Positions 140-33,169 of a DNA stretch of 33,318 nt are shown piece by piece. The notes under the pieces were generated by a model that was given only the letters and a program-made list of their open reading frames with translations, did not search any database and had not been told where the DNA came from. A program made the position numbers and the translations under genes. The stretch is from positions 1 to 33,318 of the forward strand of contig DASXQR010000037.1 in NCBI GenBank assembly GCA_036507075.1, written 5' to 3'. The DNA comes from Acidobacteriota bacterium. GTDB taxonomy: Bacteria > Acidobacteriota > UBA6911 > JACQSX01. The first letter of the stretch is position 1. Each line of letters opens with the position of its first letter.

Positions 140-352
140 GACGGTCACGTGCACGTCAATGTCCACGCCGCACGTCCAAATGCTACGGGACAGATTTAGA
201 GAGAAAAAATCGCAGTTTAGAACGCATCATGTCAATGTTGATCGTCAGCGTTAACGTAGTCGTTGACGTCTATCGTTGACGTGCACGTGCACGTCAACGG
301 CTTTTTTCTTTGGTTGCGGCCTACGGCCGGGCTGTGCCTTTTGTGGTGAAAA
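140..352. repeat. Hexamer-array palindromic element (NACGTN period 6) followed by a REP-like hairpin and a 9-mer arm
   Basis: Left array CACGTGCACGTCAATGTCCAC (~147-167) and right array GTTGACGTCTATCGTTGACGTGCACGTG (~262-289). 261-347 is nearly the reverse complement of 4641-4725. Confidence 0.85.
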
Positions 353-380
353 CTCATACGCGAATTTACGCAATCAGGTA

Positions 381-1310
381 CTAATAAGACAATTTCAATT
401 TCGCTGCTTCCAGAAATTCAATTACGGCTTTCTGATATTCCTGCTCGTGGTCGCGATAGGCGCGGCCATGGCGCCGGCCGTTCAAAATCAGCAGTCGTTT
501 TACCCGACCGGCAGATTCCCGGTAGAGCTGCCGCGCATAGTCTGCCGGCATGCGCCGATCCTCTGACTGCGCAACAAACAGAACGGGGCGAGCCCCCAGT
601 TTTCTGTTGGCTTCGACAATGTCGACGGCGTCCCCGTCGAAATCTCCTCTCCACTGGATCAGGGCAGCAATTTCATCGGCGATCGGCCAGGTCGGCAAGC
701 GAAAGAACAGTCGAAAATGATGATCGACAGTCTCGCGAAATGAAAGAAAAGTGCTGTCGCAGATAACCGCGTCTACGGTCGGATCTTCGGCCGCCGCGAG
801 CATTGCCGAAGCGGCTCCCATGGAAATTCCCCACAAAATAACTCTGCTGTGCGGTTCCTTTTTGCGAATCCACTGCACGGCGGCAGCGATGTCCGATTTT
901 TCAGCGGCTCCAAACGTGGACTTGTCGCCGGTGCTCTGCCCGTGATGCCGCAAATCGAACAACAAGCCGGAAGCTCCCAGTCCGTGCATGAATGCCGCTT
1001 GAGGAAGCATCTCCACGCGGCTGCGATTCAGGCCATGACAATAGACCACGGCCAGCTTCTTCCCTTTGCCCGGAAGGTACCAGCCACGCAGGATAATTCC
1101 CGGAGTGCTGCTGATAAAGACCGATTCATAGGCGACGCTGAAATCAGAAGGCGTTTTCCCCAGCAGCGGATCGGGAAACTGGAAGCGTCGATTGACAGCG
1201 ACCGAGGACAACAGCAGCGGTCCCACGACAAATAACAGCAGAACCACAATGCTGCCCAGGATTCCGACCGTCCATCCCAACACCCTTCGCCAGCGTTTTT
1301 TTCTTCCCAT
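381..1310 (-). CDS. Membrane-anchored alpha/beta hydrolase
   Basis: N-terminal TM after MGRKKRWRR, HG oxyanion motif (YCHGL), nucleophile elbow GISMG, C-terminal Asp and His (EDRRM, GRRHG). Start placed at ATG 1310 because the upstream ORF extension reads through repeats. Confidence 0.85.
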   Translation of the reverse strand: MGRKKRWRRVLGWTVGILGSIVVLLLFVVGPLLLSSVAVNRRFQFPDPLLGKTPSDFSVAYESVFISSTPGIILRGWYLPGKGKKLAVVYCHGLNRSRVEMLPQAAFMHGLGASGLLFDLRHHGQSTGDKSTFGAAEKSDIAAAVQWIRKKEPHSRVILWGISMGAASAMLAAAEDPTVDAVICDSTFLSFRETVDHHFRLFFRLPTWPIADEIAALIQWRGDFDGDAVDIVEANRKLGARPVLFVAQSEDRRMPADYARQLYRESAGRVKRLLILNGRRHGRAYRDHEQEYQKAVIEFLEAAKLKLSY

Positions 1311-1359
1311 TTGAAGTATTTGCCGAACGCCGCAAGATTCAAATCTGGAGATCTGTTTG

Positions 1360-1506
1360 GCCACGAAATTCGCCACGAAGGCACAAAGACACGAAGGATC
1401 CAGCCGTCCATTTAGAAGTGTCACTTCTCGCCGACCTGGATCGAGTTATGAGAAGTGTCACCTCGAAATAAACACCCGACTCTTCGTGGCTTCGCGGCTT
1501 CGTGGC
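1360..1506. repeat. 9-mer-array palindromic element (CCACGAAG / CTTCGTGG) with two internal 13-bp palindromes
   Basis: Left arm GCCACGAAGGCACAAAGACACGAAG, right arm CTTCGTGGCTTCGCGGCTTCGTGGC. Internal GAAGTGTCACTTC (1415) and GAAGTGTCACCTC (1452). Confidence 0.85.
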
Positions 1507-1586
1507 TACCTGATTTGCCGTCAACATCCCGTAAAGTGTTCGCGTTCTTAGCGCTTTCGCGGTGAAAGTTGCACCACCGAAGTTCA

Positions 1587-1616
1587 TTGACGCCTTGCAA
1601 AAGCGGTGCATATAAT
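1587..1616 (+). promoter_or_regulatory. Sigma70-type promoter
   Basis: TTGACG-N18-TATAAT upstream of RBS AAGGAG and ATG 1655. Confidence 0.6.
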
Positions 1617-1654
1617 GCCGCACATTCCGCAATATATAACTAAGGAGCATTAAG

Positions 1655-2473: not shown

Positions 2474-2488
2474 GCGGGAGCCAGGATT

Positions 2489-2680
2489 AGTTCACAAAAA
2501 ACTTAACCGCCAAGAACGCCAAGAGAGCGCAAAGGACGGGGGCTGAAACTTGAAGTATGAAGGCACTACGCCTACGTCTGACGCGGTTTTACAGCACTTC
2601 ATACTTCAAGTTTCAGCCCCCATCCTTTGCGTTTTTCTTAGCGTTCTTGGCGTTCTTGGCGGTTAAGTTTTTTGTGAACT
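2489..2680. repeat. Long nested inverted repeat between convergent genes (outer 9-mer CGCCAAGAA, inner 7-mer TGAAGTA); possible bidirectional terminator
   Basis: 2489-2562 pairs with 2597-2680. The right arm has one extra 9-mer unit. Confidence 0.9.
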
Positions 2681-2705
2681 CGTAAACCCGCTAACCCGAA
2701 ACCCG

Positions 2706-4043: not shown

Positions 4044-4081
4044 GGTCTGTAATTTTTCGACTGAAGAAAACAAAAACCGCT

Positions 4082-4575
4082 CACGTGCACGACCACGTCA
4101 ACGTCCACCGAATACGCCCACGCGTCACGTTGGTCGTATTCAGAATTTCATCATTTTAGACAACATCGACACGATTCGAACAAGAAGTTCGCTGCCGTGC
4201 CTTAACTTGTCCGACTGCGCCAGGTTCAACACTGCACAGGCATCCAGCACCGCGCCGCACTCCATGGCTGAGCCCCTGGCAATGCCGAAATAGCGCGACC
4301 GGTCTGCCTCGCTCGGCTTTCCCACTCCTTCAGCAATGTTCTGCAAAATCGATAGAGCTGCTCGTTTTAGCTCATCCGTAAGGAAGGAGTAGCCTCGAGA
4401 AATTCTCTGCACGATGATAGCGACCAGCGCAAGAAACTCAATGGCACATTTGTAGACATCCAGTTTTTGATAGCTGAGCATTTTCGCCTCCTGGTGCACA
4501 TAACTGTCCAAGGGGCAGTTCTGCGAAAGTTTTTTTGTCGACGTAATCGTGAACTTTGACGTGGTCGTGCGCGTG
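4082..4575. mobile_element. Putative element: four-helix-bundle gene bounded by hexamer-array inverted repeats
   Basis: 4082-4108 CACGTGCACGACCACGTCAACGTCCAC matches the reverse complement of 4549-4575 at 24/27 nt. Mobility is inferred. Confidence 0.55.
4140..4481 (-). CDS. Four helix bundle protein (23S rRNA intervening-sequence protein family, Avd-like fold)
   Basis: MLSYQKLDVY..L.DELKRAALSILQNIAEG..RYFGIARGSAMEC..LLVRIVSML. RBS GGAGG before ATG 4481. Confidence 0.92.
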   Translation of the reverse strand: MLSYQKLDVYKCAIEFLALVAIIVQRISRGYSFLTDELKRAALSILQNIAEGVGKPSEADRSRYFGIARGSAMECGAVLDACAVLNLAQSDKLRHGSELLVRIVSMLSKMMKF

Positions 4576-4582
4576 GACATGG

Positions 4583-4792
4583 ACGGCTTTTTCTTTGGTT
4601 GCTGCTATTTACCTTGTGCCTGTGTGGCGAGTATGTTCTTACCACAGAGGCCCGGCCCGGCCATAGGCCGCAACCAAAGAAAAAACCGAGGACGGCCACG
4701 TGCACGTCAACGATAGACGTCAACGTAGACGTCAACGACCACGGCCACGTGCACGTGGTCGTAGCCGATAAACGTCGACGTTGACGTAATCG
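4583..4792. repeat. Back-to-back composite repeat plus an empty hexamer palindrome
   Basis: TTTCTTTGGTTGC..CTTGTGCCTGTGTGG (4589-4627) faces ACCACAGAGGC..GCAACCAAAGAAA (4641-4683). CACGTG/GTCAAC arrays at 4696-4790. Confidence 0.85.
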
Positions 4793-4883
4793 GCTGTTTT
4801 CTGAAATCTTGTTGAAAAAACAAGAAGTTGCCAACTTGTTACATTGAGGGCACGGAGATCTTTCAAGTCAAACAAAAAAATTT

Positions 4884-4910
4884 GGAACTATTGCACCCCG
4901 AAACGTGAAT
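4884..4910 (+). promoter_or_regulatory. Possible autoregulatory ECF promoter (GGAAC...CGTGAA)
   Basis: A GGAAC -35-like element and a CGT-containing -10-like element upstream of the ECF sigma gene. The spacing is atypical. Confidence 0.35.
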
Positions 4911-4945
4911 TAACTATAACCGCGCGACGAGAGCACAAGGTCGGG

Positions 4946-6435: not shown

Positions 6436-6463
6436 GCAAAATAACTGCCAGCAGGAGAAATCT

Positions 6464-7624: not shown

Positions 7625-7789
7625 GAACTTTTCACCACAAAGGCACAAAGAGCGCAAAGCAAGACGTGGGGCAGGCAGAGGCCGGTCAGCTTTCCAAATG
7701 TAAACACGACAGGGGCTTTCGAAGCTGACCGGTCTCTGCCTGCCCCACGTCTTCCCTTCGTGTCCTTTGTGTCTTTGTGGTGAAAGTTC
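7625..7789. repeat. Nested palindrome: outer 9-mer arms (CACCACAAAGGCACAAAG), inner 32-bp REP-like inverted repeat
   Basis: 7661-7692 matches the reverse complement of 7722-7753 at 31/32. Outer GAACTTTTCACCACAAAG pairs with CTTTGTGGTGAAAGTTC. Confidence 0.9.
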
Positions 7790-7871: not shown

Positions 7872-8681
7872 ATGAAAGATATGCGGAGAACAATGCTTCT
7901 TTTGGCGATTACCTCGGTTTTCCTGCTGGCATTTGCCGCCGCGGCCGCGCAGGACTTTCAAAAGTCTTATTCCATTCCTGCCGGCGGCGAGGTTGCGATC
8001 AACAGCGCGTCGGGGGACGTTAACGTCGTTGGTTATAACGGCAACACCGTCGTCGTGACAGCCTATAAGGAAGGCCGGGATCGGAACCTTGTGGACATTG
8101 AAGATCTGAGCTCGGGAAACCGTGTGGAGCTCAGGTCGCGCTATCCTCGCGACTGCCGCTGTGATGCCAGCGTGCGCTTCGAGGTGCAGGTTCCGGCTAT
8201 GGTGGACCTGAAAGAGAATCTGTCGACCGCGAGCGGCAACATCCATGTCGCGATGCTGACCGGAGAGGTGAACGCCAAATCGGCCAGCGGCGAGATTACT
8301 GTTCGCAAAGTCAACGGCGCCGTCAAAGCCCACACTGCCAGTGGAAATGTGGAGATTACCGATGTGGCCGGAACCGTCAGTGCTCATACTGCCAGCGGAA
8401 ATGTCGATGCTTCGCTGACCCGGATAGAGGGTAACAACAGCATGGAGTTCACTACTGCCAGCGGGAACGTCACGGTGAAAGCACCCGCAAACCTGGATGC
8501 CAACGTGGAAATGACCACCCACAGCGGCTCTGTCAGAACGGATTTTCCGCTTTCCATTACCGACCGGGACGACGGGCGCAATCGCTTTGGTCCCCGGACG
8601 ATGGGCGGGAGATTGGGTCAGGGCTCCCGGGAACTCCGCATCCGGTCGGCTTCAGGCAACGTGAAACTGCTGCGAAATTAG
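7872..8681 (+). CDS. DUF4097-type beta-strand repeat secreted protein
   Basis: Signal peptide, repeated (T/S)ASG(N/D)V motifs, RBS AAGGAG. Confidence 0.85.
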   Translation: MKDMRRTMLLLAITSVFLLAFAAAAAQDFQKSYSIPAGGEVAINSASGDVNVVGYNGNTVVVTAYKEGRDRNLVDIEDLSSGNRVELRSRYPRDCRCDASVRFEVQVPAMVDLKENLSTASGNIHVAMLTGEVNAKSASGEITVRKVNGAVKAHTASGNVEITDVAGTVSAHTASGNVDASLTRIEGNNSMEFTTASGNVTVKAPANLDANVEMTTHSGSVRTDFPLSITDRDDGRNRFGPRTMGGRLGQGSRELRIRSASGNVKLLRN

Positions 8682-12206: not shown

Positions 12207-12412
12207 GCTCGACACTGGCGGCGCCAAAGGAGGCATTAGAAATTTGCCCATGAATTGCCCGACTTTTGCAATTCCCGCCGTTTTGATAACGTTAAAGGGG
12301 AGATTCGAGATCTTGCTGGGTCCGATTTCAGAGAAGTTTAGAAACCGTCGAGCCGGTTGCCGCATGAAGCAACCTGGCGTGCGTGAAGCTACACCGCCGC
12401 GGTTGGGCCGAT

Positions 12413-12492
12413 CTCTCCCACTCCTCCACTCCCACACTCCCCCCCTCCTCTACTCTCCCCCTCTCCCCCTCTCCCACTCTTCCACTCTCCCA
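12413..12492 (+). repeat. Unpaired polypyrimidine 8-mer array (CTCCCACT-like)
   Basis: About ten degenerate units, almost entirely C/T with periodic A. Confidence 0.8.
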
Positions 12493-12525
12493 TTTACACC
12501 ATCACCGCCACGCAGGACAACAACG

Positions 12526-13875
12526 GTGCTCGTCTCACTGCTGCTGGCCTCGATCGCGTTTCTCGCTTACTCGAATTCCTTCCCCGGCGCTTTCCATTTT
12601 GACGATTATCCACTGCTCCTCGACAATCCCGCCGTGACCGGAAAGTCCTTTCCATATCTGACGTTCCTGCAGCATTATGGCGGCCGACCCCTCACGCTTT
12701 GGAGCTTTTACTGGAACTACCGGTTGTTTGGAAGCGATCCGCTTTCCTACCACCTGATCAGCGTGGCGCTGCATGCAATCGCTGTGGTGTGCCTGTTTCT
12801 GCTGGTTTCACGCCTCTTTTCCAGCCGTTTCCTGGCATGCGGCACGGCGCTGATTTTTGCGCTGCATCCGCTTCAGACGCAGCCGGTCAATTACGTCTGG
12901 TCGCGCTCCATGCTGATCATGTCCTGTTTCGGACTGCTGTCACTATTACTGGTTCGCAAGCACCCGGTTGCGGCGTTGATTTGCTGGCAGCTTGCGATCT
13001 GGTCGCGGAGTGAAGCTATTGTGCTGGCCGTCTTTCTTTTGTGGATTCGACCGGAACGATGGAAAAGCGCGGCCGGCCTGGCGTTGCTTAATGCAGGCGC
13101 ATTCCTTTACGGTCTGGCTGCGTATCGTCCGCCTGACTTTGCGTGGAATTATCCCGACGCCGGCGGATATTTTTTGCAACAGGGGCAGTCATTCTGGCGA
13201 TACGCCTCGCTGGTCATCTGGCCTGGAAAGCTGACGGTTGATCACCATTTTACCTTTCTTCCTTCCTGGGTGGCGCTGGCGGGGATCGTAAGCCTCCTTT
13301 CCGTGTCCTGCTTCATCTACCGTTTCAGGAACTATGTTCCCGTTCCGGTGGCGGGATGGTTTTGGTTTATCGTTCTGCTCCTGCCGTCTCTGATGATTCC
13401 CAATAAGGATTTCATCAACGAGAGTCGTATCTATCTGGCACTTCCCGGGCTTGCACTGATTGCGGTCTGGTTTTTCGAACGGGTCGGATCTGCGCGAAAA
13501 CTCATTTCTGTTCGAACATTGGGCCTTTGCTTGATCGGAGCGGCAATGCTCGGCTTCACGTGGCAGCGCAACAAGGTCTGGACGGATGATGTGTCGCTGT
13601 GGAGAGACGCCGTTTCCAAGGGTGCTTCTAAATGGAGAACGCATTACAACCTGGGCGCCGCGCTGGCTCGGCAGGGAAGCGCGGCGGAAGCGGAACGCGA
13701 GTTTCACATCGCGCGCCTTTTGAATGGGGGCGATGATTTCAGCCTTGCCGGTCTGGGATACTGCGCTGAATTGCGCAGTGACTGGACGGCAAGCCGGCGT
13801 TTTTATGTGGATGCCTTAAAGCTGAATCCATCGAATCACTACGCCAGAAAACGGCTGGACTTACTAAATCATTGA
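12526..13875 (+). CDS. TMTC-like GT-C glycosyltransferase with C-terminal TPR
   Basis: F.FDD first-loop motif, RPL..SF..N, ALIFALHPLQT.PVNY..RS, ESRIYL, RNKVW.D..LW, TPR tail. The start is uncertain (GTG 12526 with AGGA, or ATG 12364). Confidence 0.75.
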   Translation: MLVSLLLASIAFLAYSNSFPGAFHFDDYPLLLDNPAVTGKSFPYLTFLQHYGGRPLTLWSFYWNYRLFGSDPLSYHLISVALHAIAVVCLFLLVSRLFSSRFLACGTALIFALHPLQTQPVNYVWSRSMLIMSCFGLLSLLLVRKHPVAALICWQLAIWSRSEAIVLAVFLLWIRPERWKSAAGLALLNAGAFLYGLAAYRPPDFAWNYPDAGGYFLQQGQSFWRYASLVIWPGKLTVDHHFTFLPSWVALAGIVSLLSVSCFIYRFRNYVPVPVAGWFWFIVLLLPSLMIPNKDFINESRIYLALPGLALIAVWFFERVGSARKLISVRTLGLCLIGAAMLGFTWQRNKVWTDDVSLWRDAVSKGASKWRTHYNLGAALARQGSAAEAEREFHIARLLNGGDDFSLAGLGYCAELRSDWTASRRFYVDALKLNPSNHYARKRLDLLNH

Positions 13876-13894: not shown

Positions 13895-14011
13895 GGTTAC
13901 GGGTTACGGGGTTTCGGGTTACGAGTTACGGAAATTTCCGCTGTAAAAGCGATTATCCGTCCTGACCGAAACTGGAAACCCGGAACTCGAAAACCCGTAA
14001 CCCGAAACCCG
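13895..14011. repeat. Inverted 7-mer arrays (GGGTTAC / GTAACCC)
   Basis: GGTTACGGGTTACGGGGTTTCGGGTTACGAGTTACG on the left and AAACCCGGAACTCGAAAACCCGTAACCCGAAACCCG on the right. Confidence 0.85.
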
Positions 14012-14101
14012 GTCGTGATCGTAGACGCGCCCGGGGATTCGAAATTCTGGTTCGTTCAGGCTAAGATACATACTGTCAGGGAATAAACGAAAAGGGGAAT
14101 A

Positions 14102-14586: not shown

Positions 14587-14654
14587 AAACCACAAAGGCA
14601 CCAAGAGACCATTTATTTGGTGCGCCGACTTGGCGCCTTGGTGTCTTGGTGTTT
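14587..14654. repeat. 9-mer-array palindrome between convergent genes
   Basis: AAACCACAAAGGCACCAAGAGACCA pairs with CTTGGCGCCTTGGTGTCTTGGTGTTT. Confidence 0.8.
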
Positions 14655-16114: not shown

Positions 16115-16182
16115 AAGAGAGTCCTCAAAAAGAGGCAGATAATACAAGAGTGGCGGCTCTGCCGGAATAAAAAATGCTCCCC

Positions 16183-16289
16183 AATGCGGATTTCGGAATG
16201 CGGAATGCGGAATAGGTTAGAGATTTGGACTCGGCCTGCAAGACTCAACCTGGGATATATTCCGCATTCCGCATTCCGAAATCCGCATT
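16183..16289. repeat. Perfect 32-bp inverted repeat made of 7-mer CGGAATG units
   Basis: 16183-16214 is the exact reverse complement of 16258-16289, including the variant unit GCGGATTTC. Confidence 0.95.
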
Positions 16290-16301
16290 CGGAAGGGCGC
16301 A

Positions 16302-16850
16302 TTAATGCACCATTGTCACTTTTCCGCTCCCTTCTTTGACGGTATGGATGCGGTCTACGACCAATCCTTCGAATCGTTCCACCAAGCCGCTGGGCCACCT
16401 GACTTCGACGAATTCGATGCGGTCGCTCTGCCCGAGGCCGAAGTGAGAGCGCAGATCGCTTTGAGACAAATAGCTGGAGCCGCTGCGCGCTTCATCGACC
16501 TGCATTCTTGACCCGGTCTTTACGGTGATTCGGGCGCCGATGGCATCGCGGTTGGACCGGGTTCCCACCAGCTTGAGGCCCACCCAGTGATTCCGGTCGG
16601 GCGATCGATTCACCAGCAAATTGGGCGTTTCGTTGATGTTGCTGATTGCGGCGGAAATGCGGCCGTCATTCCAGAAATCGGCGATGGCCAGCCCGCGGGC
16701 TGCAGAAGACATGCGAATTCCGGATCCCGCCGTCATCGACATGTCGCTGAACGTGCCGTCTCCGTTGTTGCGATAAAGCAATCGCGGCTCTCGATAGCTT
16801 GTTCCGAACGGATGGATATCCACTTCGGGATAAATATGGCCATTGACCAG
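16302..16850 (-). pseudogene. C-terminal fragment of a CRTAC1-family (FG-GAP + ASPIC/UnbV) protein
   Basis: LVNGHIYPEVD..LYRNNGDGTF..SNRDAIGARI..GSSYLSQSD.R.HFGLG..VRWPSG. The N-terminal part is absent. Confidence 0.8.
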
Positions 16851-17170
16851 ACAATGGATTGGGGTTTCTCACCTTCCAGCTCCACAATGTAAGTGGAAGG
16901 GAAGTCGCCGCCCGGCGCGCGCCAGGTGACGGCATGGCGGCTGTTGGATTGGAGCTCGAAATTGGCGCGGTGGCAGCTTGCGCAAACTTCGACGCCGACA
17001 TAATAGTTGTCCCGCTTCGTGGCGCTGCCGGTCTGTTCGATTAACTGTTCCGAGAATCCTGTTTCGATCCTGGAAGCAGTGAATCCACCGGTGCCGGCAA
17101 GCGCGGCAAGAAACAGACTTATCGGGCGGAGCAAACCGGCGAAGCAGACAGAGCCGAATCTGATCTTCAT
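16851..17170 (-). pseudogene. N-terminal fragment of a c-type cytochrome protein
   Basis: Signal-like N-terminus and YVG.EVCASCH..S.HA motif. It then runs out of frame into the CRTAC1 fragment. Confidence 0.65.
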
Positions 17171-17220: not shown

Positions 17221-17347
17221 TTGTTCGTTGTCAGTGGTCAGTTGCCCATGGTTCGGTCTTAACGTCGAAGGTCTGAAGGTTGAAAGTCCGAAAGTCAAAA
17301 GTTTGAAGGTCAGTGAGGTGAACTGTCTTGGTGTCTTGGTGGTTAAA
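17221..17347. repeat. Stacked arrays: 7-mer (TTGTCAG), 7/8-mer (GTCNGAAA/G) and 9-mer (CTTGGTGT)
   Basis: The 7/8-mer and 9-mer parts mirror 18101-18163. 17319-17347 is also directly repeated at 18064-18092. Confidence 0.8.
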
Positions 17348-17369
17348 TCTTTTCAGGCAAGGAGATTCT

Positions 17370-18029
17370 ATGGCATCCGATCGACCGCCGATCATGCAAC
17401 TGATTCTGGTTCCATCGATGATCACCCTGCTGATCACCCTGCTGCGATTGGTAGGGGAGATGAAGGGTTGGTCTGAGGTTTTCTTCAAGCGTTCAGCGGG
17501 CGGGTTCGGCGCTCTGGTTGGTATTGCGTGGCTTGTGCCCGTGTTCGGGATTTATTTTGCACTCAAGCTTGCCAAGATGGGATTTGAGCCGCGCGGCGCT
17601 TTGCGTGCTGTCGGCATCGTGCTGGTCGCGCTGGTTGTGGAAATTGGCGTGGGTCTGGTGCCAATGATTTTCCACGGAGACTATCGCGCTCAGCTCGGAT
17701 TCATGGCGCTGGGGGCTTTGATCGGGATTCCAATTGCTATCACTGCCTGGCCGGCACTGGGCAAGACTCTTCTGGCCTATGGTTTGGCCGCGCGTGTCCC
17801 GGTAATCGTGATCATGTTTTTGGCCATCCGCGGCAATTGGGGAACGCATTACGATGTGGCGCCTCCTGACTTTCCAGCGCTGCCGGTGATGCAGAAGTTC
17901 TTCTGGATCGGACTGCTGCCTCAGGCGACGCTTTGGATCGCGTACACGGTGTTGTTCGGAATTATTTTTGGCGCCCTCGCATATGCAGTCGGACGACGGC
18001 GCGCGCCGGATCTTGCGCACTCGGCTTGA
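17370..18029 (+). CDS. Hypothetical multi-pass membrane protein
   Basis: RBS AAGGAG before ATG 17370 and about six hydrophobic segments. Confidence 0.8.
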   Translation: MASDRPPIMQLILVPSMITLLITLLRLVGEMKGWSEVFFKRSAGGFGALVGIAWLVPVFGIYFALKLAKMGFEPRGALRAVGIVLVALVVEIGVGLVPMIFHGDYRAQLGFMALGALIGIPIAITAWPALGKTLLAYGLAARVPVIVIMFLAIRGNWGTHYDVAPPDFPALPVMQKFFWIGLLPQATLWIAYTVLFGIIFGALAYAVGRRRAPDLAHSA

Positions 18030-18063
18030 CCGGCTTAATGTCGAAAGCCTCAAAATCGGGAGT

Positions 18064-18163
18064 TGAACTGACTTGGTGCCTTGGTGGTAAAATTTTTTTG
18101 AACCACGAAGACACCAAGAGATTAGCTCACCCTCAGACTTTCGATCTTCCGGACTTCCGACTT
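18064..18163. repeat. Back-to-back 9-mer palindrome plus a 7/8-mer array
   Basis: CTTGGTGCCTTGGTGGT-AAAATTTTTTTG-AACCACGAAGACACCAAG, then GACTTTCGATCTTCCGGACTTCCGACTT. Confidence 0.85.
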
Positions 18164-18834: not shown

Positions 18835-18887
18835 AGCTTGGCGCCTTGGTGGTGAAAAAAATTAAACCACCAAGGCACCAAGCCAGA
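18835..18887. repeat. Back-to-back 9-mer palindrome
   Basis: Near-identical to 12156-12206. Confidence 0.9.
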
Positions 18888-22266: not shown

Positions 22267-25200
22267 TCACTTTCCCCGGTACGTGATCCACATCGGCGAG
22301 ACCCAGACGATTTCGCCGTCCTGCTGTTCTCCCCGGACATAGTAATAGCTCGTCTTTCCCGCCTGCGCAGCCGTGTCCATCCAGGTGAATTCCACTCTGG
22401 CCGTCTTCGGCTCATGGCTGTAGACGTAGCGGTTGTCTTTGACCACGTGCACCTTGGCGAACGGGGCGGTTCCCATCAGCTTAACGGTAAGCGATGGTTT
22501 GTCGCTGGTTTCAAACTGTTCGCCCATCAGGTGATTGCCGCTGCGCACGTCTGCCAGGATGTCGTCTGTGGCGCCGTAGACATGGCGCTTCTTGAAAGCT
22601 TCCAGCAGAGCCTCACGCGTCGGCGCCGTTGTAAACAAGTTGCAGTAGCTCATGTGCGTCGAAATATGGTCTGAACTGGCTTGAAATCCAAGACGGTACC
22701 CTCTATCCAGAAGCGCAAGCGAAACAAAACCTTTGGGCCGCCAGCCGCCGATGGAATCTTTCTCGTTGTTCGATCTGGGAGCATCTGGCATTTCATAGTT
22801 CTGCCGGTCTCCCTGGTAGATCTCCACCAGTGGCTCGAGGAGCGGATCATTGTCGCGCCAGTCCGTGCCCATATTGGTGGCGCTGGTGTGTGAAGCGACG
22901 ATGCCGTTGAAGTGCCGCAAATAATCATAGAGCATTCGGGTGTCGGGCGCGCCGCCGGCAATCGTGTCATCTTTAACCTTGGGCAGTCGCGGCAGCGTGC
23001 GAACGCCTCGTTGCGCAAAGATAACGTTCCGGTGCCCCTCCGGATAAGCCACGCTCCGCTCGTAATTGAACATTGGAGTAAACACTCCCGTCAGCAGAAA
23101 GATATCCGTGAGCTTTTGCGTCGTCCACCAGCTGTATTCCCTGCCAAACCCGTTGTCGTGGTCGCAACAACCGATCCAATCGAGTGCCGCGGCATCCAGC
23201 GCGTAACGCCAGGCGTCCCAGATGGAGCCATCCCGCCCCGCGTCCATCGAAATTTCCGTGTGGCGATGAAACTCCCCGCGTACAATGCGATATTCCACGC
23301 CGTCCACGCGTGCGCGATACTCACGGAGCGCGCGGACATTCGATCTCCCGGCGGGCATATTTGTTCCGGGATCCTCGCCAGGCGCGGCTTCCAGCCGGGC
23401 CTGACTAACGGAAGTCCCCAGGACAATGGTCGAAGCGTAAAGATCGTTATTGTACGGATCCTGCCGCATCCCGAATTGCTGTGCCGGGATATCGGACCTT
23501 CGGAGTGAAGCGTCGAACTTTTGCCGGCTGTCGGAAGAACGGATAATCATGACTTCTCCCGGAGCGCCGGCCGCCAGCGCCGGCCGGTTGTCCAGCAGGT
23601 TATCGCTGTGGTTAAGAAAGATCGGGTTGGACCATGAGTTGCCGTCGAACGAGACCACATTCTCAAACCAGACCGTCCCGAGTGCAGTCCACCAGATCGG
23701 ATGAGCAGTACGATATGCAAGCCAAATGCGACCGCTGCGATCCGACAGGAGTCGCGGGTAACTGTTGAGGGGCCGCGGCGGAATCACGGGGATGCGGCTG
23801 GTGGGGCGATTCTTTGCAAGAGAAGGATCGGGCTGCGGATCCTTGTGCGCGTCACTTTGTCGAGCGTTGGAGTCCACTTTTCGGTCTGGAACGCCGGGCA
23901 GCACGGCATCCAGATTCCCAGGGATGAAGGCCTTACCCCCTTGCCACACCTTCAAGCGAATCCAGCGGCCCTGATAAAGCCCGATGCCTGTTGTTTCATA
24001 GGCTCCGAAGTCTTTTCCCCACGCCTCATCGGATTCCTCCCAGGCAAGCCAGAGCCGTCCGGAAGGATCATAAGCAACTGTCGGGTACGCTTCATAGCGG
24101 CTGGTGTTTGCCGCAGGCTGCTCGGCTCCGGGTTTTCCGGCGCTGTCAAATGAGCGGAAGTATACGTCGTAGTTTCCACTTCGATAACTGTCCCACGCCA
24201 CAGTGACCTGACCGGAAGGCGAAGCCGCAATCGCCGGGTTCCATTCATTTGCCGCCGAGGCTGCGACTGGTATGGCCGCGGAAAAGGCGTCCCCCTCCTG
24301 GCGTGCCGCGTGGATCTGAAAATGCCCGTGGCGAAATGCCTGCCAGGCTATCCACACACGCCCGGCAGAGTCGGTGGCCGCAACCGGCAGGATGTCAGGA
24401 CCGGCATCCGTGGTCAGACGCACCGTGCTCCCTCCTTTTTCACCCTGGAAAGGCCGCGCATAAAGATCAAAGTTGGCGCCGCTGTTCGCTGTCCAGCAAA
24501 CCCACACACGTCCCGAGCCGTCAATGCCAACCGCCGGCCTGTAAAGGTCGCCACGTGCCTCGGAAACCGGGATCGGATTCGACCAGGAGCCCTTGGAGTA
24601 TCGCATCAGAAAGATCTGATCTCCTCCGGCGGGTTCCGCCAATTCGCTGAAATTTTTAGGCGCTTCGCCCAGCGCCATGCGAATACCGGCGAATTTTGGA
24701 TTGATGGAGAACTGCATGAATGCGATCCAGATATTGCCGGCCGCATCCACTGCGGCAGCCGGGTAATCCTGATCGTCTCGCGAGCGGGTCAACTGCATGG
24801 TGACGGGAATGCGGTCGACCATTGCCCGGCCGTCGAGAAATTTTGTTATCTGGCCATATTGGATGTCGGCGGCGCGAAACTGAAAGTCTCCCTGGGCTGT
24901 TTTTACGCGCACTTCGGAATTCGGTTTTAGGTTCTTGAAGGTTGCAATGATGCCATTCGCCACAAAAGGCTGAGCCGGCTGAGGCGGCGGCTGCCCCGGC
25001 TGCTGTGCCGCTTGTGCGGGCTGCCGAGCCGTCTGCGGTGCGGCCTGGGGCGCCTGTGGTGCAGACTGCGGCGCCTGTGGTGCGGGCTGTTGCGGCGGTG
25101 GTACGGGCTGTGGCGCCTGTGGTGCGGGCTGCTGCGCCGTTTGCTGTGTGGTTGCAGCCTGAGGCTGTTGCGGTTGCTGGCGCTGCGCTCCAAAGGCGCG

Positions 25201-25530
25201 CGCACGATGGGTGGCGATTTTCCAACTGCTGTTTTGCAGGCTGTCGCCGTCGTCAAATCGCCATGGTTCCAGACGTTCCAGCTTGCCGTCTTTCACTGAA
25301 ATGGAGCCGTCCCATGATTTGCTCTCCGCATCGGTAAGACCGAGAAGAATCCGGAATGACGCTTCTCCGGCCGCGCCCGTTGCGCCGCGCGAAGAGTCGC
25401 CGGTCGCCGTCTGGCCGGCGGCGGTGCCCGCGGAAAGGGCCGCTCCGGAAAACATGCCTGCGTAGTGCATCAACGCAAGCAGTGCAAGGGACAGCGTCAG
25501 AATGATCGCAAGGCGGGAGATTCTGAACAT
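22267..25530 (-). CDS. Large secreted protein: P/Q/A-rich linker, beta-propeller-like repeats, C-terminal PHP-like metallohydrolase domain
   Basis: GEFHRHTEIS.D, DHD, GHRN, H, SSDH metal-ligand pattern. Repeated P.iA.D..G.vWiAW blades and a YYYVR C-terminus. Confidence 0.75.
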   Translation of the reverse strand: MFRISRLAIILTLSLALLALMHYAGMFSGAALSAGTAAGQTATGDSSRGATGAAGEASFRILLGLTDAESKSWDGSISVKDGKLERLEPWRFDDGDSLQNSSWKIATHRARAFGAQRQQPQQPQAATTQQTAQQPAPQAPQPVPPPQQPAPQAPQSAPQAPQAAPQTARQPAQAAQQPGQPPPQPAQPFVANGIIATFKNLKPNSEVRVKTAQGDFQFRAADIQYGQITKFLDGRAMVDRIPVTMQLTRSRDDQDYPAAAVDAAGNIWIAFMQFSINPKFAGIRMALGEAPKNFSELAEPAGGDQIFLMRYSKGSWSNPIPVSEARGDLYRPAVGIDGSGRVWVCWTANSGANFDLYARPFQGEKGGSTVRLTTDAGPDILPVAATDSAGRVWIAWQAFRHGHFQIHAARQEGDAFSAAIPVAASAANEWNPAIAASPSGQVTVAWDSYRSGNYDVYFRSFDSAGKPGAEQPAANTSRYEAYPTVAYDPSGRLWLAWEESDEAWGKDFGAYETTGIGLYQGRWIRLKVWQGGKAFIPGNLDAVLPGVPDRKVDSNARQSDAHKDPQPDPSLAKNRPTSRIPVIPPRPLNSYPRLLSDRSGRIWLAYRTAHPIWWTALGTVWFENVVSFDGNSWSNPIFLNHSDNLLDNRPALAAGAPGEVMIIRSSDSRQKFDASLRRSDIPAQQFGMRQDPYNNDLYASTIVLGTSVSQARLEAAPGEDPGTNMPAGRSNVRALREYRARVDGVEYRIVRGEFHRHTEISMDAGRDGSIWDAWRYALDAAALDWIGCCDHDNGFGREYSWWTTQKLTDIFLLTGVFTPMFNYERSVAYPEGHRNVIFAQRGVRTLPRLPKVKDDTIAGGAPDTRMLYDYLRHFNGIVASHTSATNMGTDWRDNDPLLEPLVEIYQGDRQNYEMPDAPRSNNEKDSIGGWRPKGFVSLALLDRGYRLGFQASSDHISTHMSYCNLFTTAPTREALLEAFKKRHVYGATDDILADVRSGNHLMGEQFETSDKPSLTVKLMGTAPFAKVHVVKDNRYVYSHEPKTARVEFTWMDTAAQAGKTSYYYVRGEQQDGEIVWVSPMWITYRGK

Positions 25531-25662: not shown

Positions 25663-25790
25663 TTGCCACAAAGCCACAAAGATTCTACGGGCTCATGAGA
25701 AGTGTAACTTCCGTGCATGCCCGATCATGGCTGGGAAGGTTTCACTTCACGCTGAATCCAGATCTTTGTGGCTTTGCGGCTTTGTGGCCA
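25663..25790. repeat. 9-mer-array palindrome (GCCACAAA) with two internal 13-bp palindromes; overlaps the kinase 3' end
   Basis: GCCACAAAGCCACAAAGAT pairs with ATCTTTGTGGCTTTGCGGCTTTGTGGC. Motifs at 25699 and 25736. Confidence 0.85.
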
Positions 25791-27102: not shown

Positions 27103-27106
27103 GTTG

Positions 27107-29079: not shown

Positions 29080-29124
29080 TGAAATTAATTTCGTGATTTC
29101 TGGTGGTCGCCGGTTTAGTTATGC

Positions 29125-29538
29125 ATGAACCACCAGGACAACAAGCAAACGATCGAGCCCGTACCCTATTCATTAGACCAGATAGCAAGACAGGTTGTTA
29201 GTGCGGCCTGCAATGTGCATTCATCGCTGGGGCCGGGCCTCCTGGAGAGCGTCTACGAAGCATGTTTGGCCCATGAAGTAGGCAAACGAGGTCTGTCGGT
29301 ACGGAGACAGGTGCCTGTACCGGTAAATTACGACAACGTGCGCCTGGATCTGGGATTTCGCTTAGATTTGGTGGTTAAGGAGGCATTGATTGTAGAGATC
29401 AAGGCAGTGGATGCACTGCATCCCGTGCACTACGCTCAAATGATCACTTACCTGAAACTTACGAACCTTCGCCTCGGGCTATTGATCAATTTCAATGTTC
29501 CCTTGATCAAAGAAGGAATTCATCGAATAGCCTTGTAG
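29125..29538 (+). CDS. GxxExxY protein (PD-(D/E)XK nuclease-like)
   Basis: VHSSLGPGLLESVYEACL, RLDLVV...IVEIK, H.AQ..TYLK...GLLINFN. Confidence 0.95.
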   Translation: MNHQDNKQTIEPVPYSLDQIARQVVSAACNVHSSLGPGLLESVYEACLAHEVGKRGLSVRRQVPVPVNYDNVRLDLGFRLDLVVKEALIVEIKAVDALHPVHYAQMITYLKLTNLRLGLLINFNVPLIKEGIHRIAL

Positions 29539-29572
29539 AATGTTAAGCTAGCTGGGTGTCTTGGTGGTTCAT
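29125..29572. mobile_element. Putative element: GxxExxY gene bounded by 9-mer inverted arms
   Basis: ATGAACCACCAGGACAACAAGC (29125-29146) matches the reverse complement of GCTGGGTGTCTTGGTGGTTCAT (29551-29572) at 19/22. Mobility is inferred. Confidence 0.55.
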
Positions 29573-29601
29573 TTTTTTTACCACCAAGACACCAAGCTAG
29601 C
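29547..29601. repeat. Back-to-back 9-mer palindrome downstream of GxxExxY
   Basis: GCTAGCTGGGTGTCTTGGTGGT pairs with ACCACCAAGACACCAAGCTAGC around a T-rich loop. Confidence 0.9.
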
Positions 29602-29687
29602 CAATAAAGTTTCCAGTAACCTCGGCAGTGACTCAAGACCCCGAATTCTGATATCTTCTCTCCACATCCATCTCCTGGAGGTCACCT

Positions 29688-30785: not shown

Positions 30786-31056
30786 AAGGCCGGAAGGCGG
30801 AAGGCGGAAGGCGGAAGGCGGAAGGCGGAAGGCGGAAGGCGATAAAGCCGACGACGTCTACGTGCACGTGACACCTCAACGTCCACGTCTACGATTACGT
30901 CCTCATATGGTAACCTTGGGCAACGCGTCAGCGTCGACGTTGTCGTGGACCTTGACGTGTCACGTGCACGTGGTCGGTCGTTTTTCGCTTTCCGCTATCG
31001 CTTTGTGCCGGAGTGACACTTCCAGATCGATTAAGAATCTTCGTGGCTTCGTGGCG
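30786..31056. repeat. Nested repeats: (CGGAAGG)x7 outer arm, hexamer palindrome inside, then a 13-bp motif and an orphan 9-mer arm
   Basis: Seven perfect units at 30791-30839. 30860-30893 matches the reverse complement of 30938-30971 at 30/34. GGAGTGACACTTC at 31010 and CTTCGTGGCTTCGTGGC at 31039. Confidence 0.9.
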
Positions 31057-31069
31057 ATTACCCGAAGGA

Positions 31070-31948
31070 TCACTTCTCCGCAGAAAGCGCCGCTTCCCAA
31101 ACCAGCATTGCTTTCTTGCGCGCCGCCCCCCAGCGATAGTTACCCACAATTCCTGATTTTCGAATCACCCGGTGGCAAGGGACCAGAAATGCGACCGGAT
31201 TCGAGCCTACAGCCGTGCCTACGGCGCGAGAGGCCGAGGCCTGTCCCACCGCCTGGGCCAGATCTTCATAGCAGCAGACCTGACCGGAAGGAATGCGGAG
31301 AAGCGCTTCCCAGACTTTGATCTGAAAGTTCGTCCCCTTGAGAAAAAGAGGCACCTTTTGCCTTCCGGGTTCGAAAATCTTCTGCGCGAAAGATCGGGTG
31401 GCCATTGCGTCCTCTATCAGCCCGGCTCCCGACCAGCGATCTCTCAAGTCCGCGAGGGCTTCCTTTCTCTCCCCGGGACAGAAGGAGAGGCCACAAATCC
31501 CTCTCTCTGTGACTGACAGCAGGCATTCGCCAAACGGAGAGTCATGAAACCCATAGCGGATCCGCAACCCGGCGCCATTCCGCTTGAATTCCGCCGGTGT
31601 TACGGCCTCGATTGTTACAAACAGATCATGCAGCCGTCCGGGCCCTGAAAGACCCGCCTGATAAGCGGTATCCAGCAGGTCACGGGATTCCTGCAGCAGC
31701 CCTTTTGCATATTCGACGGTCAAAAACTGCAAAAACCGTTTCGGGCTTATGCCCGCCCAGCGCTTGAACAGCCGCTGGAAGTGGAAGGGGCTCAATCCTG
31801 AATTGCCGGCGATTTCTCCCAGGCTTGGTTGTTGTTGGAAATTTTGCTCGATATAACGAATCGCGCTCTCGATTCGGGAGTAATCAGAGGAGAGACTCAT
31901 ACCTGACCGTGAAATGTTGCGGCTTGTGGCAGCAGTTTGCAATTGCAT
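31070..31948 (-). CDS. AraC-HTH / methylated-DNA--protein-cysteine methyltransferase (Ada-like, no N-terminal Zn domain)
   Basis: LSPFHFQRLFKRWAGISPKRFLQ HTH, GTNFQ.KVW.AL, RAVG.A...NP...VPCHRV active site. Confidence 0.92.
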   Translation of the reverse strand: MQLQTAATSRNISRSGMSLSSDYSRIESAIRYIEQNFQQQPSLGEIAGNSGLSPFHFQRLFKRWAGISPKRFLQFLTVEYAKGLLQESRDLLDTAYQAGLSGPGRLHDLFVTIEAVTPAEFKRNGAGLRIRYGFHDSPFGECLLSVTERGICGLSFCPGERKEALADLRDRWSGAGLIEDAMATRSFAQKIFEPGRQKVPLFLKGTNFQIKVWEALLRIPSGQVCCYEDLAQAVGQASASRAVGTAVGSNPVAFLVPCHRVIRKSGIVGNYRWGAARKKAMLVWEAALSAEK

Positions 31949-32037
31949 ATTGAAACCTCTCTAAAAAGATTCGACGCAGGTAAAATAGCGAATCAAGCCG
32001 CTTTTCTGCCACCCGATTCTTGCTGTCCAGGGAAATA

Positions 32038-32200
32038 CTTATTCACCACAAAGGTTGGGAGTGGAGAGACGGCCTGAGGGCCGTCTCAGCTTGGCAGTTG
32101 GCTCGACATGACAAAGGCCACGACGCCCTTGGCGCAGCTTTGCTACGCCCGAGACGGCCCTCAGGCCGTCTCTCCATTCCCAACCTTTGTGGTGAATAAG
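32038..32200. repeat. REPIN-like element: 50-bp inverted repeats, each holding a REP-like hairpin and capped by a 9-mer-family terminus
   Basis: 32038-32087 matches the reverse complement of 32151-32200 at 49/50. Internal hairpin GAGACGGCC-TGAG-GGCCGTCTC. Confidence 0.9.
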
Positions 32201-32215
32201 CTTTTCCGGGTTTCG

Positions 32216-33013
32216 CTAATCAGCGGGCGCCAGTTCCCGAATCCAGATGTTGCGATAACGCACCGGATTTCCATGATCCTGGAGCGAGATCGGCATCTTG
32301 TCGGGATGCACTTTGTAGGGCGGGCGCTGCTGGTGTGCGGTGGGGCCCATCAACTCGACGTTGTCCTGAACAAGGACGCCATTGTGGAGGACGGTCTCCC
32401 GCGCCGGCTTGAGGAGCTTGCCGTCCTTATCGAAACGTGGAGCGTGGAAAATAATATCGTAGGTCTGCCACTGTCCGGGAGGACGGGATGCGTTTACCAG
32501 GGGCGGGTATTGTCCATAAATCGCGGCGGCCTGGCCGTCCGGATAAGTCTTGTTCTGGTAAGAATCCAGAACCTGCGTCTCGTACTGCTTCATCAGAAAA
32601 ACTCCGCTGTTGCCTCGGCCCTGGCTTTCTCCCCTGGGAGGCGTGGGAGTCGCGAATTCGACGTGGAGCTGGCAATCGCCAAACGACTGGCTGGTGACGG
32701 CATACCCTGTCCCTCTGACGGATTCCATATAGCCGTTCTCCGCCTTCCACTTTGTCGGTTCGCCGCTCTCACTTCTCCATTGCGTCAGATCCTTGCCATC
32801 AAACAGGACAATTGCATCGGAAGGAGCGAGGCCGGCCGCTTCCTGCGTGCTCGCTGTCGGCGGACTGATCACCGGCGGCTGCGGTCGATCCATGTCATGA
32901 ATCTTCCATTCCTTTTCCTTCGATACCGCAAAGCTGGCAAGGGCTGCCGCGCTCACGAGCAGCAAAACCGCAAGCACAGCCAGCCGGGTAGGGGTCGCAA
33001 ATGGTTTAGACAT
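32216..33013 (-). CDS. DUF1080 (3-keto-disaccharide hydrolase-like) secreted protein
   Basis: PSDAIVLFDGKDL..W, FGDCQLHVEF, RGNSGVF, YETQVLDS, WQTYDI.F, LQDHGNPVRYRNIWIR. Confidence 0.92.
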   Translation of the reverse strand: MSKPFATPTRLAVLAVLLLVSAAALASFAVSKEKEWKIHDMDRPQPPVISPPTASTQEAAGLAPSDAIVLFDGKDLTQWRSESGEPTKWKAENGYMESVRGTGYAVTSQSFGDCQLHVEFATPTPPRGESQGRGNSGVFLMKQYETQVLDSYQNKTYPDGQAAAIYGQYPPLVNASRPPGQWQTYDIIFHAPRFDKDGKLLKPARETVLHNGVLVQDNVELMGPTAHQQRPPYKVHPDKMPISLQDHGNPVRYRNIWIRELAPAD

Positions 33014-33086
33014 GGGGCCTCCTCTGTTGGACTTTAAGTTATTGCGTGTCGGGAATCCGAGTCTAACTTAATGGCGGGAAAGCTTC

Positions 33087-33169
33087 AATGCGGAATGCGG
33101 AATGCGGAATACGGAATAAAAGCTGTCAGTTGTCCGTTGTCCGTCGTCAGTTGTCCGTTGTCGGTTGTC
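33087..33169. repeat. Two stacked unpaired 7-mer arrays (CGGAATG; TGTCMGT)
   Basis: AATGCGGAATGCGGAATGCGGAATACGGAATA, then TGTCAGTTGTCCGTTGTCCGTCGTCAGTTGTCCGTTGTCGGTTGTC. Confidence 0.9.

Follow-up and report, generated by a model that had tools for sequence, protein, structure and literature searches.

The 33,318-nt Acidobacteriota contig shown above (DASXQR010000037.1, the whole of which we call the window) carries two small genes, one of the GxxExxY family (PF13366) and one of a four-helix-bundle (4HB) family (PF05635), each held between two inverted arms of short tandem repeats. Palindromes built of such arms but lacking a gene lie scattered among its other genes. We consider it rather likely that the window samples small selfish cassettes and gene-less relatives of these that populate the entire genome, with the encoded protein recognising the arms, new copies entering at hairpin tips, and gene-less copies using the protein in trans. 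A complete cassette measures 0.45-0.7 kb and consists of two inverted arms of tandem 6-10-nt units around one small gene. GxxExxY cassettes have arms of 8-10-nt units with a CRCNRAG core, and 4HB cassettes have arms of 6-8-nt units whose core and period are clade-specific. Arms and gene travel as a unit that comes, goes and is swapped at fixed sites, and cassettes decay by internal deletion to arms-only palindromes, which multiply to hundreds of copies.

Microrepeat palindromes in the window and across the genome

The window is an entire 33.3-kb contig of a genome assembly of 6.1 Mb in 233 contigs that is 95.7% complete. Tandem Repeats Finder (TRF) returned 48 rows for the window, with periods of 6-24 nt that are nearly all 6-9 or multiples of these, and an inverted-repeat scan returned 52 pairs, the 25 longest of which were used for the feature readings (Table 1). 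When the best ungapped inverted repeat was scored in each of the 24 intergenic gaps, the strict score of at least 14 was reached in 16. A lenient count gives 19, as three further gaps (1372-1506, 14599-14651 and 18072-18118) score 10-13 with clear microrepeat arms, and lone arms or arrays were read by eye in the other five. Shuffled gaps had mean scores of 4-8 and 14 coding segments scored 6-9. The mirror-image arrays that the original prediction saw in about 20 gaps are thus confirmed, and they are not ordinary. Unit types include ACGT-centred hexamers, the heptamers CGGAATG, GGGTTAC, AAGGCGG and TGTCCGT, the units GACTGAAC and CTCCCACT, and a 9-mer series of CACCAAG, CACAAAG, CGCCAAG, CACGAAG and CACGAAT. 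The units named in that prediction are present, TGAAGTA with merely two repeats per arm.

The genome-wide repeat scan that had been proposed as a check lay far above its control: TRF returned 6562 rows (4914 arrays) for the genome and 934 rows for a Markov-shuffled genome. The commonest periods are 7, 8 and 9 (1391, 1193 and 852 arrays), and 2778 of the 4914 arrays lie mostly outside open reading frames (ORFs) of at least 100 aa, which leave 12.7% of the genome free. Inverted array pairs within 3 kb number 986, with a spacing peak at 20-150 nt and a trough at 200-800 nt. The units belong to a limited set of families, for instance AATGCGG with 436 arrays, the CGCCAAG type with 200 and the CACGAAG type with 175. 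Many of the window palindromes are members of dispersed fixed-length families with conserved inner unique parts, found at 10-125 loci each; the 55-nt CACCAAG type is the most numerous (108-125 loci), followed by the type at 8676 (45) and those at 2489 and 7630 (21 each). Since these gene-less palindromes share the arms of the cassettes and form multicopy families, the idea that they are derivatives of gene-bearing elements gained in strength.

We give almost no credence to the view that the repeats are assembly errors of a metagenome-assembled genome. The assembly has 233 contigs, which often end in arrays, but complete single-contig genomes and many independent assemblies show the same architectures, and an independent assembly of two possible source soil runs contains 1.00 and 0.97 of the sampled words. 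Furthermore, variant units are mirrored in register across the two arms of the palindrome at 16177-16295.

Many contigs start or end in or near microrepeat arrays (C213:187, C146:66, C186:194, C232:18, C148:4 and 33087-33169 in the window), and such arrays probably cause much of the assembly's fragmentation.

Matched arms enclose the GxxExxY and 4HB genes

The GxxExxY ORF of the window (29125-29538) lies between 22-nt arms (29125-29146 and 29551-29572) that are 86% complementary, and the 4HB ORF (4143-4487, minus strand) between 27-nt arms that are 89% complementary, as had been noted from the letters of the window for 9-mer and 6-mer arms, respectively. The first protein matches TIGR04256 with 147.3 bits (cut-off 35) and PF13366 with E = 2e-41. 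Residues G38, E41, Y44, D81, E91 and K93 are invariant in 80 of 80 GxxExxY sequences, and the fold model has a predicted local distance difference test (pLDDT) score of 92.3 and a PD-(D/E)XK fold; its best matches in the Protein Data Bank (PDB) are Cas4, RecB-type and Hjc nucleases, all weak (E of at least 0.007). The invariant D and E-x-K core and G-x-x-E-x-x-Y helix, together with the confident model, agree with the earlier assignment to the PD-(D/E)XK nucleases. Because the catalytic residues are invariant and the model is confident, the nuclease looks active, as a prediction. PADLOC defence models gave marginal matches only for GxxExxY (E = 0.0026 and 0.0095, the latter to Cas4) and none for 4HB.

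The 4HB protein matches TIGR02436 with 64.3 bits (cut-off 24) and PF05635 with 67.1 bits (cut-off 33.8), and its sole solved relative is PDB 2gsc from Xanthomonas campestris (E = 3.7e-9). Its cassette sits between a CCA-adding-enzyme-like ORF and a sigma-factor ORF, and the gene is parted from its neighbours solely by repeat arms. As a sign of a diversity-generating retroelement (DGR) we looked for a reverse transcriptase beside the gene; no ORF of that size adjoins it, and the wider genome was not searched for one.

PF13366 matches occur at six places in the genome, and we read the flanks of all of them. Five loci are bordered by arrays of the CACCAAG, CGCCAAG, CACGAAT, CACAAAG or CACGAAG type. 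The sixth (C145:17161-18499) has arms of a 35-nt unit, with three copies upstream and inverted copies downstream, which is a second arm style of the family beside the 8-10-nt units. Two of the six loci are broken: the C59 copy has two stop codons, and the C152 copy is cut at residue 72, where the right arm abuts directly. PF05635 matches occur at nine places belonging to seven loci, three of them broken or fragmentary, and the flanks read there hold border arrays of period 6-8. Counting a locus as enclosed if its 200-nt flanks share at least eight inverted 8-mers, 4 of 6 GxxExxY and 4 of 7 4HB loci are enclosed vs 123 of 4520 ORFs (2.7%, irrespective of gene length), the enrichment around both families that had been expected.

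Arms accompany both families in other genomes

To ask whether arms follow the GxxExxY gene beyond this phylum, we used 80 relatives from named genomes, bacterial ones of many phyla and some archaeal ones; 77 of the relatives have enough flank. A flank inverted repeat scoring at least 14 was found at 48 of the 77 loci vs 3 of 77 when flanks of mismatched loci were paired, so matched arms flank GxxExxY genes across phyla. These arms are arrays with a CRCNRAG core and a TTAACC, TTCACC or CTCAC head.

For the 4HB family, a metagenome search with a single protein, the C199 copy, covers one subfamily, and 46 of 57 usable loci of its relatives (65-78% identical) are enclosed. The cross-locus control is likewise high, at 31 of 57, because all C199-type arms are GCAG-core heptamers. 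In five family- or order-level relatives of this genome 18 of 23 4HB loci have an arm score of at least 18, so short-period arms flank 4HB genes elsewhere too. Among 300 further genomes of the phylum, relatives of the window-type 4HB protein have hexamer arms if at least 36% identical to it and heptamer arms if more distant. Several arm families that lack a gene copy in our genome have a 4HB gene in relatives, for example AAGGCGG, AAAGTCG and a variant that differs from AATGCGG by one base.

Where the arms are clear, the period is 8-10 in 42 of 48 GxxExxY loci and 6, 7 or 12 in 67 of 70 4HB loci. We built a maximum-likelihood tree of 48 4HB proteins out of 59 candidate rows, the others being dropped for stops, a length below 85 aa, short flanks or an arm score below 14. 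All 14 hexamer-armed rows fall in one clade (support 96/89), so that the hexamer trait needs one change on the tree; 0 of 500 shuffles did as well. Both period classes coexist within single host genomes. As hexamer arms are monophyletic and single hosts carry both classes, arm period belongs to the cassette lineage rather than to the host, and the unit sequence itself drifts around a small conserved core. The period classes first proposed hold insofar as the two gene families differ, but they are looser than was stated: 8-10 for GxxExxY and 6-8 for 4HB, with 6 limited to one protein clade.

Arm abundance follows the GxxExxY gene

To compare the number of arms with the number of genes, we searched one set of 301 Acidobacteriota genomes both for a triple-unit 9-mer pattern and for PF13366; three of the genomes are unpublished (G015, G053 and G171; none is arm-rich). 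Our genome tops the set with 1053 arms, vs 0 matches to the same pattern read backwards. Arm count and GxxExxY gene count correlate with a Spearman coefficient of 0.66 over the 301 genomes and 0.65 over the means of 90 families; relatedness makes the genomes non-independent, and P-values of this test therefore overstate. The gene is present in 69 of the 80 genomes with at least 20 arms vs 43 of the 221 with fewer. Of the 20 families that contain both states, 15 have a higher median arm count in the genomes with the gene than in those without it, two a lower and three an equal one. That the abundance of empty elements tracks the presence of the gene, one of the checks suggested at the outset, is therefore seen within this phylum.

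Filled, empty and swapped alleles at orthologous sites

Nucleotide identity to the nearest genomes is 65-76%, and the neighbour genes of the window lie on different contigs there; three window-related sites that we read by eye in relatives hold other elements or have other neighbours, and synteny is lost. The comparison of filled and empty sites was made in two other genera, g57 and g40. The g57 site is a single operon junction, from the stop codon of a thiolase gene to the start of the next gene, compared in 31 genomes with flanks 82-91% identical. Six genomes carry a gene-bearing GxxExxY cassette there, three with CGCAGAT arms, two with CACAGAT arms and one unread. The genes of the CACAGAT-armed cassettes are 66-69% identical to the CGCAGAT-armed ones, and the flanks 86-90%. 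Ten genomes have 55-290 nt at the site, all of which we read: nine are gene-less palindromes of the CGCGAAAT, CGCGAATG, CGCAGAG/CACTGAG or CACAGAT type, and the tenth (G288) retains the left arm plus some 25 codons of the gene, with a further palindrome behind them. The remaining 15 have a spacer of 37-47 nt; the six that were read have a common sequence with a 7-bp stem, reminiscent of a collapsed arm. Of three outgroup genera, one has a short naive spacer, another a solo arm and the third a CGCGAATG palindrome. Elements at this site begin 0-8 nt past the stop codon, and in several the head TAACC supplies the stop.

The g40 site was compared in four genomes with flanks 94-96% identical, of which three have a hexamer-armed 4HB cassette and one a 9-mer-armed GxxExxY cassette, each starting directly after the upstream stop codon. 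From the states of the two sites it follows that gene and arms behave as a single replaceable unit, and that GxxExxY and 4HB cassettes are interchangeable occupants of one site. The filled and empty states that had been looked for at orthologous loci thus exist. The C152 copy, truncated at residue 72, and the G288 remnant are intermediates of decay.

These sites also bear on a host function, in which the hairpins serve as RNA stabilisers, terminators, RNase III, G-quadruplex or nucleoid sites, both proteins are domesticated servicers, and the repeats spread by host benefit. Such a role would suit the very high intergenic density without apparent harm, the many elements that begin at stop codons within operons, a promoter motif common to repair genes (see below) and the Xanthomonas repeats, which are mostly transcribed in a mostly conserved gene context according to the accessible part of that report (PMC4692102). 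Yet many of the genes are broken, distribution is patchy even inside families, unit families differ widely among close genomes, the g57 site has at least five arm types or none within one genus, and 4HB and GxxExxY replace each other at the g40 site. We regard a host function as unlikely to be the explanation.

Operon-junction cassettes and arms-only elements bring their own ribosome-binding site (L247 2960-2990 and others), and alleles differ in the first 3-8 codons of the gene downstream (L186 at about 2000-2025 vs G046). The element seems to provide the gene that follows it with a new start of translation.

Concentric nesting and the proposed mechanism

Among 783 tight palindromes of this genome (loops of at most 400 nt) we counted 20 nested pairs, 0 pairs side by side within 150 nt and 0 interleaved pairs. 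In a nested pair the outer loop is taken up, usually but for 30 nt or less, by an entire palindrome of another family; both families are seen on the outside, and as many as four layers were counted. Concentric pairing without exception suggests that insertion takes place at hairpin tips. The same single rule fits genes in loops, palindromes in loops and the intervening sequences (IVSs) that replace tetraloops of rRNA helices.

In the mechanism that we propose, the encoded protein, probably acting as an oligomer on a folded hairpin or cruciform, would recognise the core motif that recurs periodically in its own arms. A nuclease, which for 4HB cassettes would be a recruited host enzyme, would open the hairpin tip or an already occupied site, and repair would copy a cassette or an arms-only element into the opening, a nuclease-started, homing-like process. 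Entry of this kind would leave no target duplication, and gene-less copies would use the protein in trans. On this view the gene-bearing members would be autonomous, their protein catalysing or directing movement.

A classical transposon is the natural competitor. Here the arms would be terminal inverted repeats with subterminal sites, the protein would be a transposase or recruit one that accepts nearly any target, and the gene-less copies would be MITEs (miniature inverted-repeat transposable elements). Some elements do have inverted ends with repeated short subterminal binding motifs. The inverted arms with repeated short motifs, the multicopy families of defined length, the internal-deletion derivatives and the abundance that tracks the gene would all be expected of it. 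What speaks against it is that a target-site duplication of at least 3 nt was found in 0 of 76 copies of the 55-nt family, whose ends are not sharply defined, that profile searches gave neither protein a DDE, HUH or serine/tyrosine recombinase domain, and that insertion is non-random, with paired palindromes always concentric and the one g57 junction repeatedly hit or refilled. In addition, the 4HB proteins are not enzymes as far as is known; we know of no PF05635 protein that is one. Taken together, a classical transposon seems to us improbable.

Selfish cassettes that enter at hairpin tips remain our preferred reading, and a number of observations weigh against it. The missing target-site duplication is one of them, and a weak one because the element ends are not sharply defined. 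The action of either protein on the arms is something we infer, and the 4HB protein has no known enzymatic function. AATGCGG, the largest family with its 436 arrays, has no resident gene copy in the 95.7%-complete assembly; a relative carries a 4HB gene whose arms differ from it by one base. The C88 and C225 4HB loci are flanked by direct and not inverted arrays, 29 of the 77 cross-phylum GxxExxY loci have no clear flank repeat, and background enclosure includes EF-P and RNase PH, which lie between palindromes of the same abundant family. No GxxExxY match turned up in 11 of the 80 arm-rich genomes, and the triple-unit arm is missing from 13 genomes that have the gene. Identity among the four intact GxxExxY proteins of our genome is just 34-51%, with no sign of a recent gene-bearing burst. 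At the g57 site, single events may have gone in either direction, and long vertical residence with in-place arm change may explain part of the pattern. Lastly, Xanthomonas heptamers mostly keep their gene context between two species, with 16% absent or strongly mutated according to the part of the report at hand (PMC4692102), so turnover can be slow.

A shared promoter-like motif and the Y1 transposases

Genes of both cassette families and the Y1 transposase genes of this genome have a promoter-like motif upstream, made up of an A/T tract, TTTCGCAGATTT, some 14 nt of spacer and GGTTATGT. It also stands before recQ-, ERCC4-, comEA-, recA- and dprA-like ORFs. In its strict form it occurs 13 times in the genome vs 0 in a shuffle, and in g40 both cassette types have their own shared variant. 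As the motif is common to the cassettes and to recA-, recQ-, dprA- and comEA-like genes, the cassettes may be expressed together with DNA repair or uptake functions, plugged into a repair or competence regulon. We also considered the motif as an intrinsic part of the cassette and rejected this: 0 of 78 GxxExxY loci of other taxa have it, which makes it a feature of the host lineage.

The genome has 12 Y1_Tnp matches, and this opens the way for a passenger explanation, in which palindromes are moved by another agent, such as transposases of the type associated with repetitive extragenic palindromes (REP-associated tyrosine transposases, RAYTs) or replication slippage, and small genes are merely caught in loops. 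Loops of one arm family do hold very different contents, including other palindromes, and ordinary genes can sit between matching arms. But the RAYT-like Y1 genes, enclosed in 5 of 9 cases, are flanked by GC-rich REP hairpins of their own that are unlike the microrepeat arms, and on this ground we rejected them as movers of those arms. Across phyla, the type and period of the arms go with the family and clade of the protein, which is unexpected of random passengers, and arm counts follow GxxExxY counts. We therefore hold the passenger explanation to be very unlikely.

Classical REP/RAYT-like units, that is, IS200-type Y1 genes within GC-rich hairpins, are found at C122:12873-13319 and on C85, C107 and C223. 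Copies of the Y1-type GC-rich hairpin lie in the window at 1-80 and at 32060-32180, the latter inside the 32031-32207 palindrome.

Relation to known systems

The closest parallel is the system of REP/REPIN sequences and RAYTs, which likewise has a single small gene within inverted hairpin repeats, hundreds of intergenic gene-less copies and an abundance tied to the gene. It differs in that the cassette genes are PF13366 or PF05635 (PD-(D/E)XK or non-enzymatic 4HB) and not HUH Y1, that the arms are variable-copy tandem 6-10-nt units and not one GC-rich stem, and that several cassette lineages share a genome, with gene copies often multiple and often broken. Some have argued that REP/RAYT is a domesticated system serving the host. 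A REPIN-like reading is the best available one for the cassettes, in which the function of the proteins is putative.

The ORF-bearing IVSs of 23S rRNA in Coxiella burnetii and Leptospira, as the accessible part of PMC4990558 presents them, place a PF05635 protein (S23p ORF) inside a stem of terminal inverted repeats at the tip of an existing helix, and the ORF of a 4HB cassette is likewise enclosed by complementary termini. According to the same source, IVSs replace helix tetraloops, those with an ORF are regarded as selfish and possibly mobile, and the Coxiella stem of 28 bp is cut by RNase III. In contrast, 4HB cassettes lie between protein-coding genes and not in 23S helix 9, 25 or 45, their stems are microrepeats, gene-less copies run into the hundreds, and the layout is shared by a second, unrelated protein family.

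Abundant intergenic 7-nt arrays have been described before: the GGGNATC heptamers of Xanthomonas and Nostoc, with variable copy number (PMC4692102), and the TAACTGA repeats of Beggiatoaceae, cyanobacteria and Bacteroidetes (PMC4679880). In the portions of these papers at our disposal, both read the repeats as G-quadruplex or translational signals, and neither links them to a gene family or mobile element. The Xanthomonas repeats include 70-75 convergent inverted pairs untied to genes and are generally unassociated with mobile elements (same portion of PMC4692102), and the terms "helix bundle" and "23S" have 0 occurrences in PMC4679880.

Foldback transposons of eukaryotes and MITEs have long inverted ends with variable numbers of short subrepeats; most copies are non-coding, and they typically include internal-deletion derivatives of a rarer coding form. 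They differ from the cassettes in being eukaryotic, in having other proteins and in making target duplications, of which we found none. Homing endonuclease genes resemble the cassettes as small nuclease genes at a specific kind of site that are replaced or lost between close relatives. The cassettes depart from them in that their suggested target is a structure or an occupied palindrome, the gene carries its own arms, and the 4HB version has no nuclease.

Our full-text searches, which left subscription journals largely outside, found no paper that connects PF13366 or PF05635 with flanking arms of microrepeats. A table in PMC3424549 gives PF13366 as "Unknown", with multiple transfers, and PMC10053308 describes PF05635 as known only from rRNA IVSs and a likeness to Avd. 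Both are very large families without an assigned role, and the present evidence ties both to one kind of element. More tentatively, and leaning somewhat against it ourselves, we raise the possibility of an unrecognised, very widespread class of prokaryotic mobile element with structure-directed insertion at hairpin tips, in which a small protein reads a periodic 6-10-nt arm motif and for which a minimal PD-(D/E)XK nuclease and an Avd-like 4HB protein were each recruited, mutually replaceable at the same site. If true, one mechanism would account for the function of two of the largest protein families without known role, the origin of ORF-bearing rRNA IVSs, and the 6-9-nt microrepeats of Xanthomonas, cyanobacteria, Beggiatoaceae and others, and it would explain why in some genomes most of the intergenic DNA is given over to microrepeat hairpins. 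The proposal predicts binding of the proteins to the periodic arm motif and insertion at hairpin tips, for which the sites described here supply natural filled, empty and swapped alleles. There is a practical side as well, since such repeats break metagenome assemblies.

Other features of the window

The features of the window are collected in Table 1.

Table 1. Cassettes, palindromes and repeat arrays of the window. Copies are those counted in the genome.
Feature	Position	Strand	Basis
Gene-less palindrome, hexamer arms (ACGT core)	139-296; arms 139-159 and 276-296	.	Inverted-repeat scan; gap score 15
Gene-less palindrome, CACGAAG-type arms, conserved inner box	1372-1506	.	Gap score 13; 10 full-length genome copies (query 1362-1507)
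Two-layer palindrome	2489-2680	.	Outer CGCCAAG 9-mer arms 36 nt, 100% complementary; 21 full-length copies
Inner layer of the 2489-2680 palindrome	2528-2631	.	Arms 35 nt, 97% complementary
4HB cassette arm, hexamer array	4082-4108	.	27 nt, 89% complementary to 4549-4575
4HB gene (TIGR02436 / PF05635)	4143-4487	-	Profile match; PDB relative 2gsc
Promoter-like motif between 4HB arm and start codon: A-tract, TTTCGCAGA, spacer, CAGTTATGT	4496-4540	-	Read by eye; motif statistics
Second 4HB cassette arm	4549-4575	.	Inverted-repeat scan
Palindrome adjoining the 4HB cassette, then hexamer array	4560-4756; arms 4560-4605 and 4667-4712; array 4698-4756	.	Inverted-repeat scan, TRF
Two-layer palindrome, outer CACAAAG 9-mer arms, TTTCACC / GGTGAAA heads outward; inner unique 37-nt stem	7630-7785	.	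21 full-length copies
CACGAAT palindrome, begins at the upstream gene's stop codon	8676-8764	.	TRF; gap score 17; 45 copies
CACCAAG palindrome of about 55 nt, heads inward, A-rich loop	12150-12208	.	Gap score 16; 108 copies
GGGTTAC heptamer palindrome	13895-14012	.	Inverted-repeat scan; gap score 18
CGGAATG heptamer palindrome; variant unit mirrored in register in the opposite arm	16177-16295	.	38 nt, 95%; 24 copies
Two concentric arm pairs around a 233-aa membrane ORF: outer GGTCTGAA-type with GACTTCC-type, inner CTTGGTG with CACCAAG; complete palindrome at 18068-18119	17255-18163	.	Inverted-repeat scan; read by eye
CACCAAG palindrome of about 55 nt	18836-18886	.	Gap score 15; 123 copies
CACAAAG palindrome, 3-nt loop	19830-19896	.	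Inverted-repeat scan; 34 copies
CGCCAAG / CGCTAAG palindrome, 110-nt loop	20704-20873	.	Gap score 22; 18 copies
GACTGAAC octamer palindrome, overlaps stop codon	22194-22262	.	Inverted-repeat scan, TRF
GCCACAAA palindrome	25665-25788	.	TRF; gap score 16
GxxExxY cassette left border: degenerate outer arm, promoter-like stretch (29092-29124, +), inner arm 29125-29146 over start codon	29092-29146	.	Inverted-repeat scan; read by eye
GxxExxY gene (TIGR04256 / PF13366), predicted PD-(D/E)XK fold, catalytic residues kept	29125-29538	+	Profile match, alignment, fold model
GxxExxY cassette right border: entire CACCAAG palindrome, its first arm (29551-29572) complementary to the left arm	29547-29601	.	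114 copies
AAGGCGG heptamer array, 8 units, then hexamer palindrome 30855-30976	30786-30976	.	TRF score 103
Palindrome, 57-nt arms, 95% complementary: CACAAAG head and GC-rich REP-type hairpins	32031-32207	.	Inverted-repeat scan
Two lone arrays (AATGCGG, TGTCCGT) near contig end	33087-33169	.	TRF

The 233-aa membrane ORF between the two concentric arm pairs had no family match in the profile search and may be either cargo of another kind or a neighbour by chance. At 12413-12492, within the reading frame 12244-13875 and 5′ of its probable true start, there is an 80-nt CTCCCNCN octamer array; relatives of this array that are 79-83% identical occur at 10 places, eight in G001 and two in G003. A 21-nt tandem repeat of 5.8 copies at 25014-25138 is coding, inside a 1087-aa ORF (22267-25530), and is probably unrelated to the hairpins. 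Finally, the ORFs 16302-16823 and 16733-17170 overlap on the same (minus) strand, which suggests a frameshift or an assembly error in one gene.

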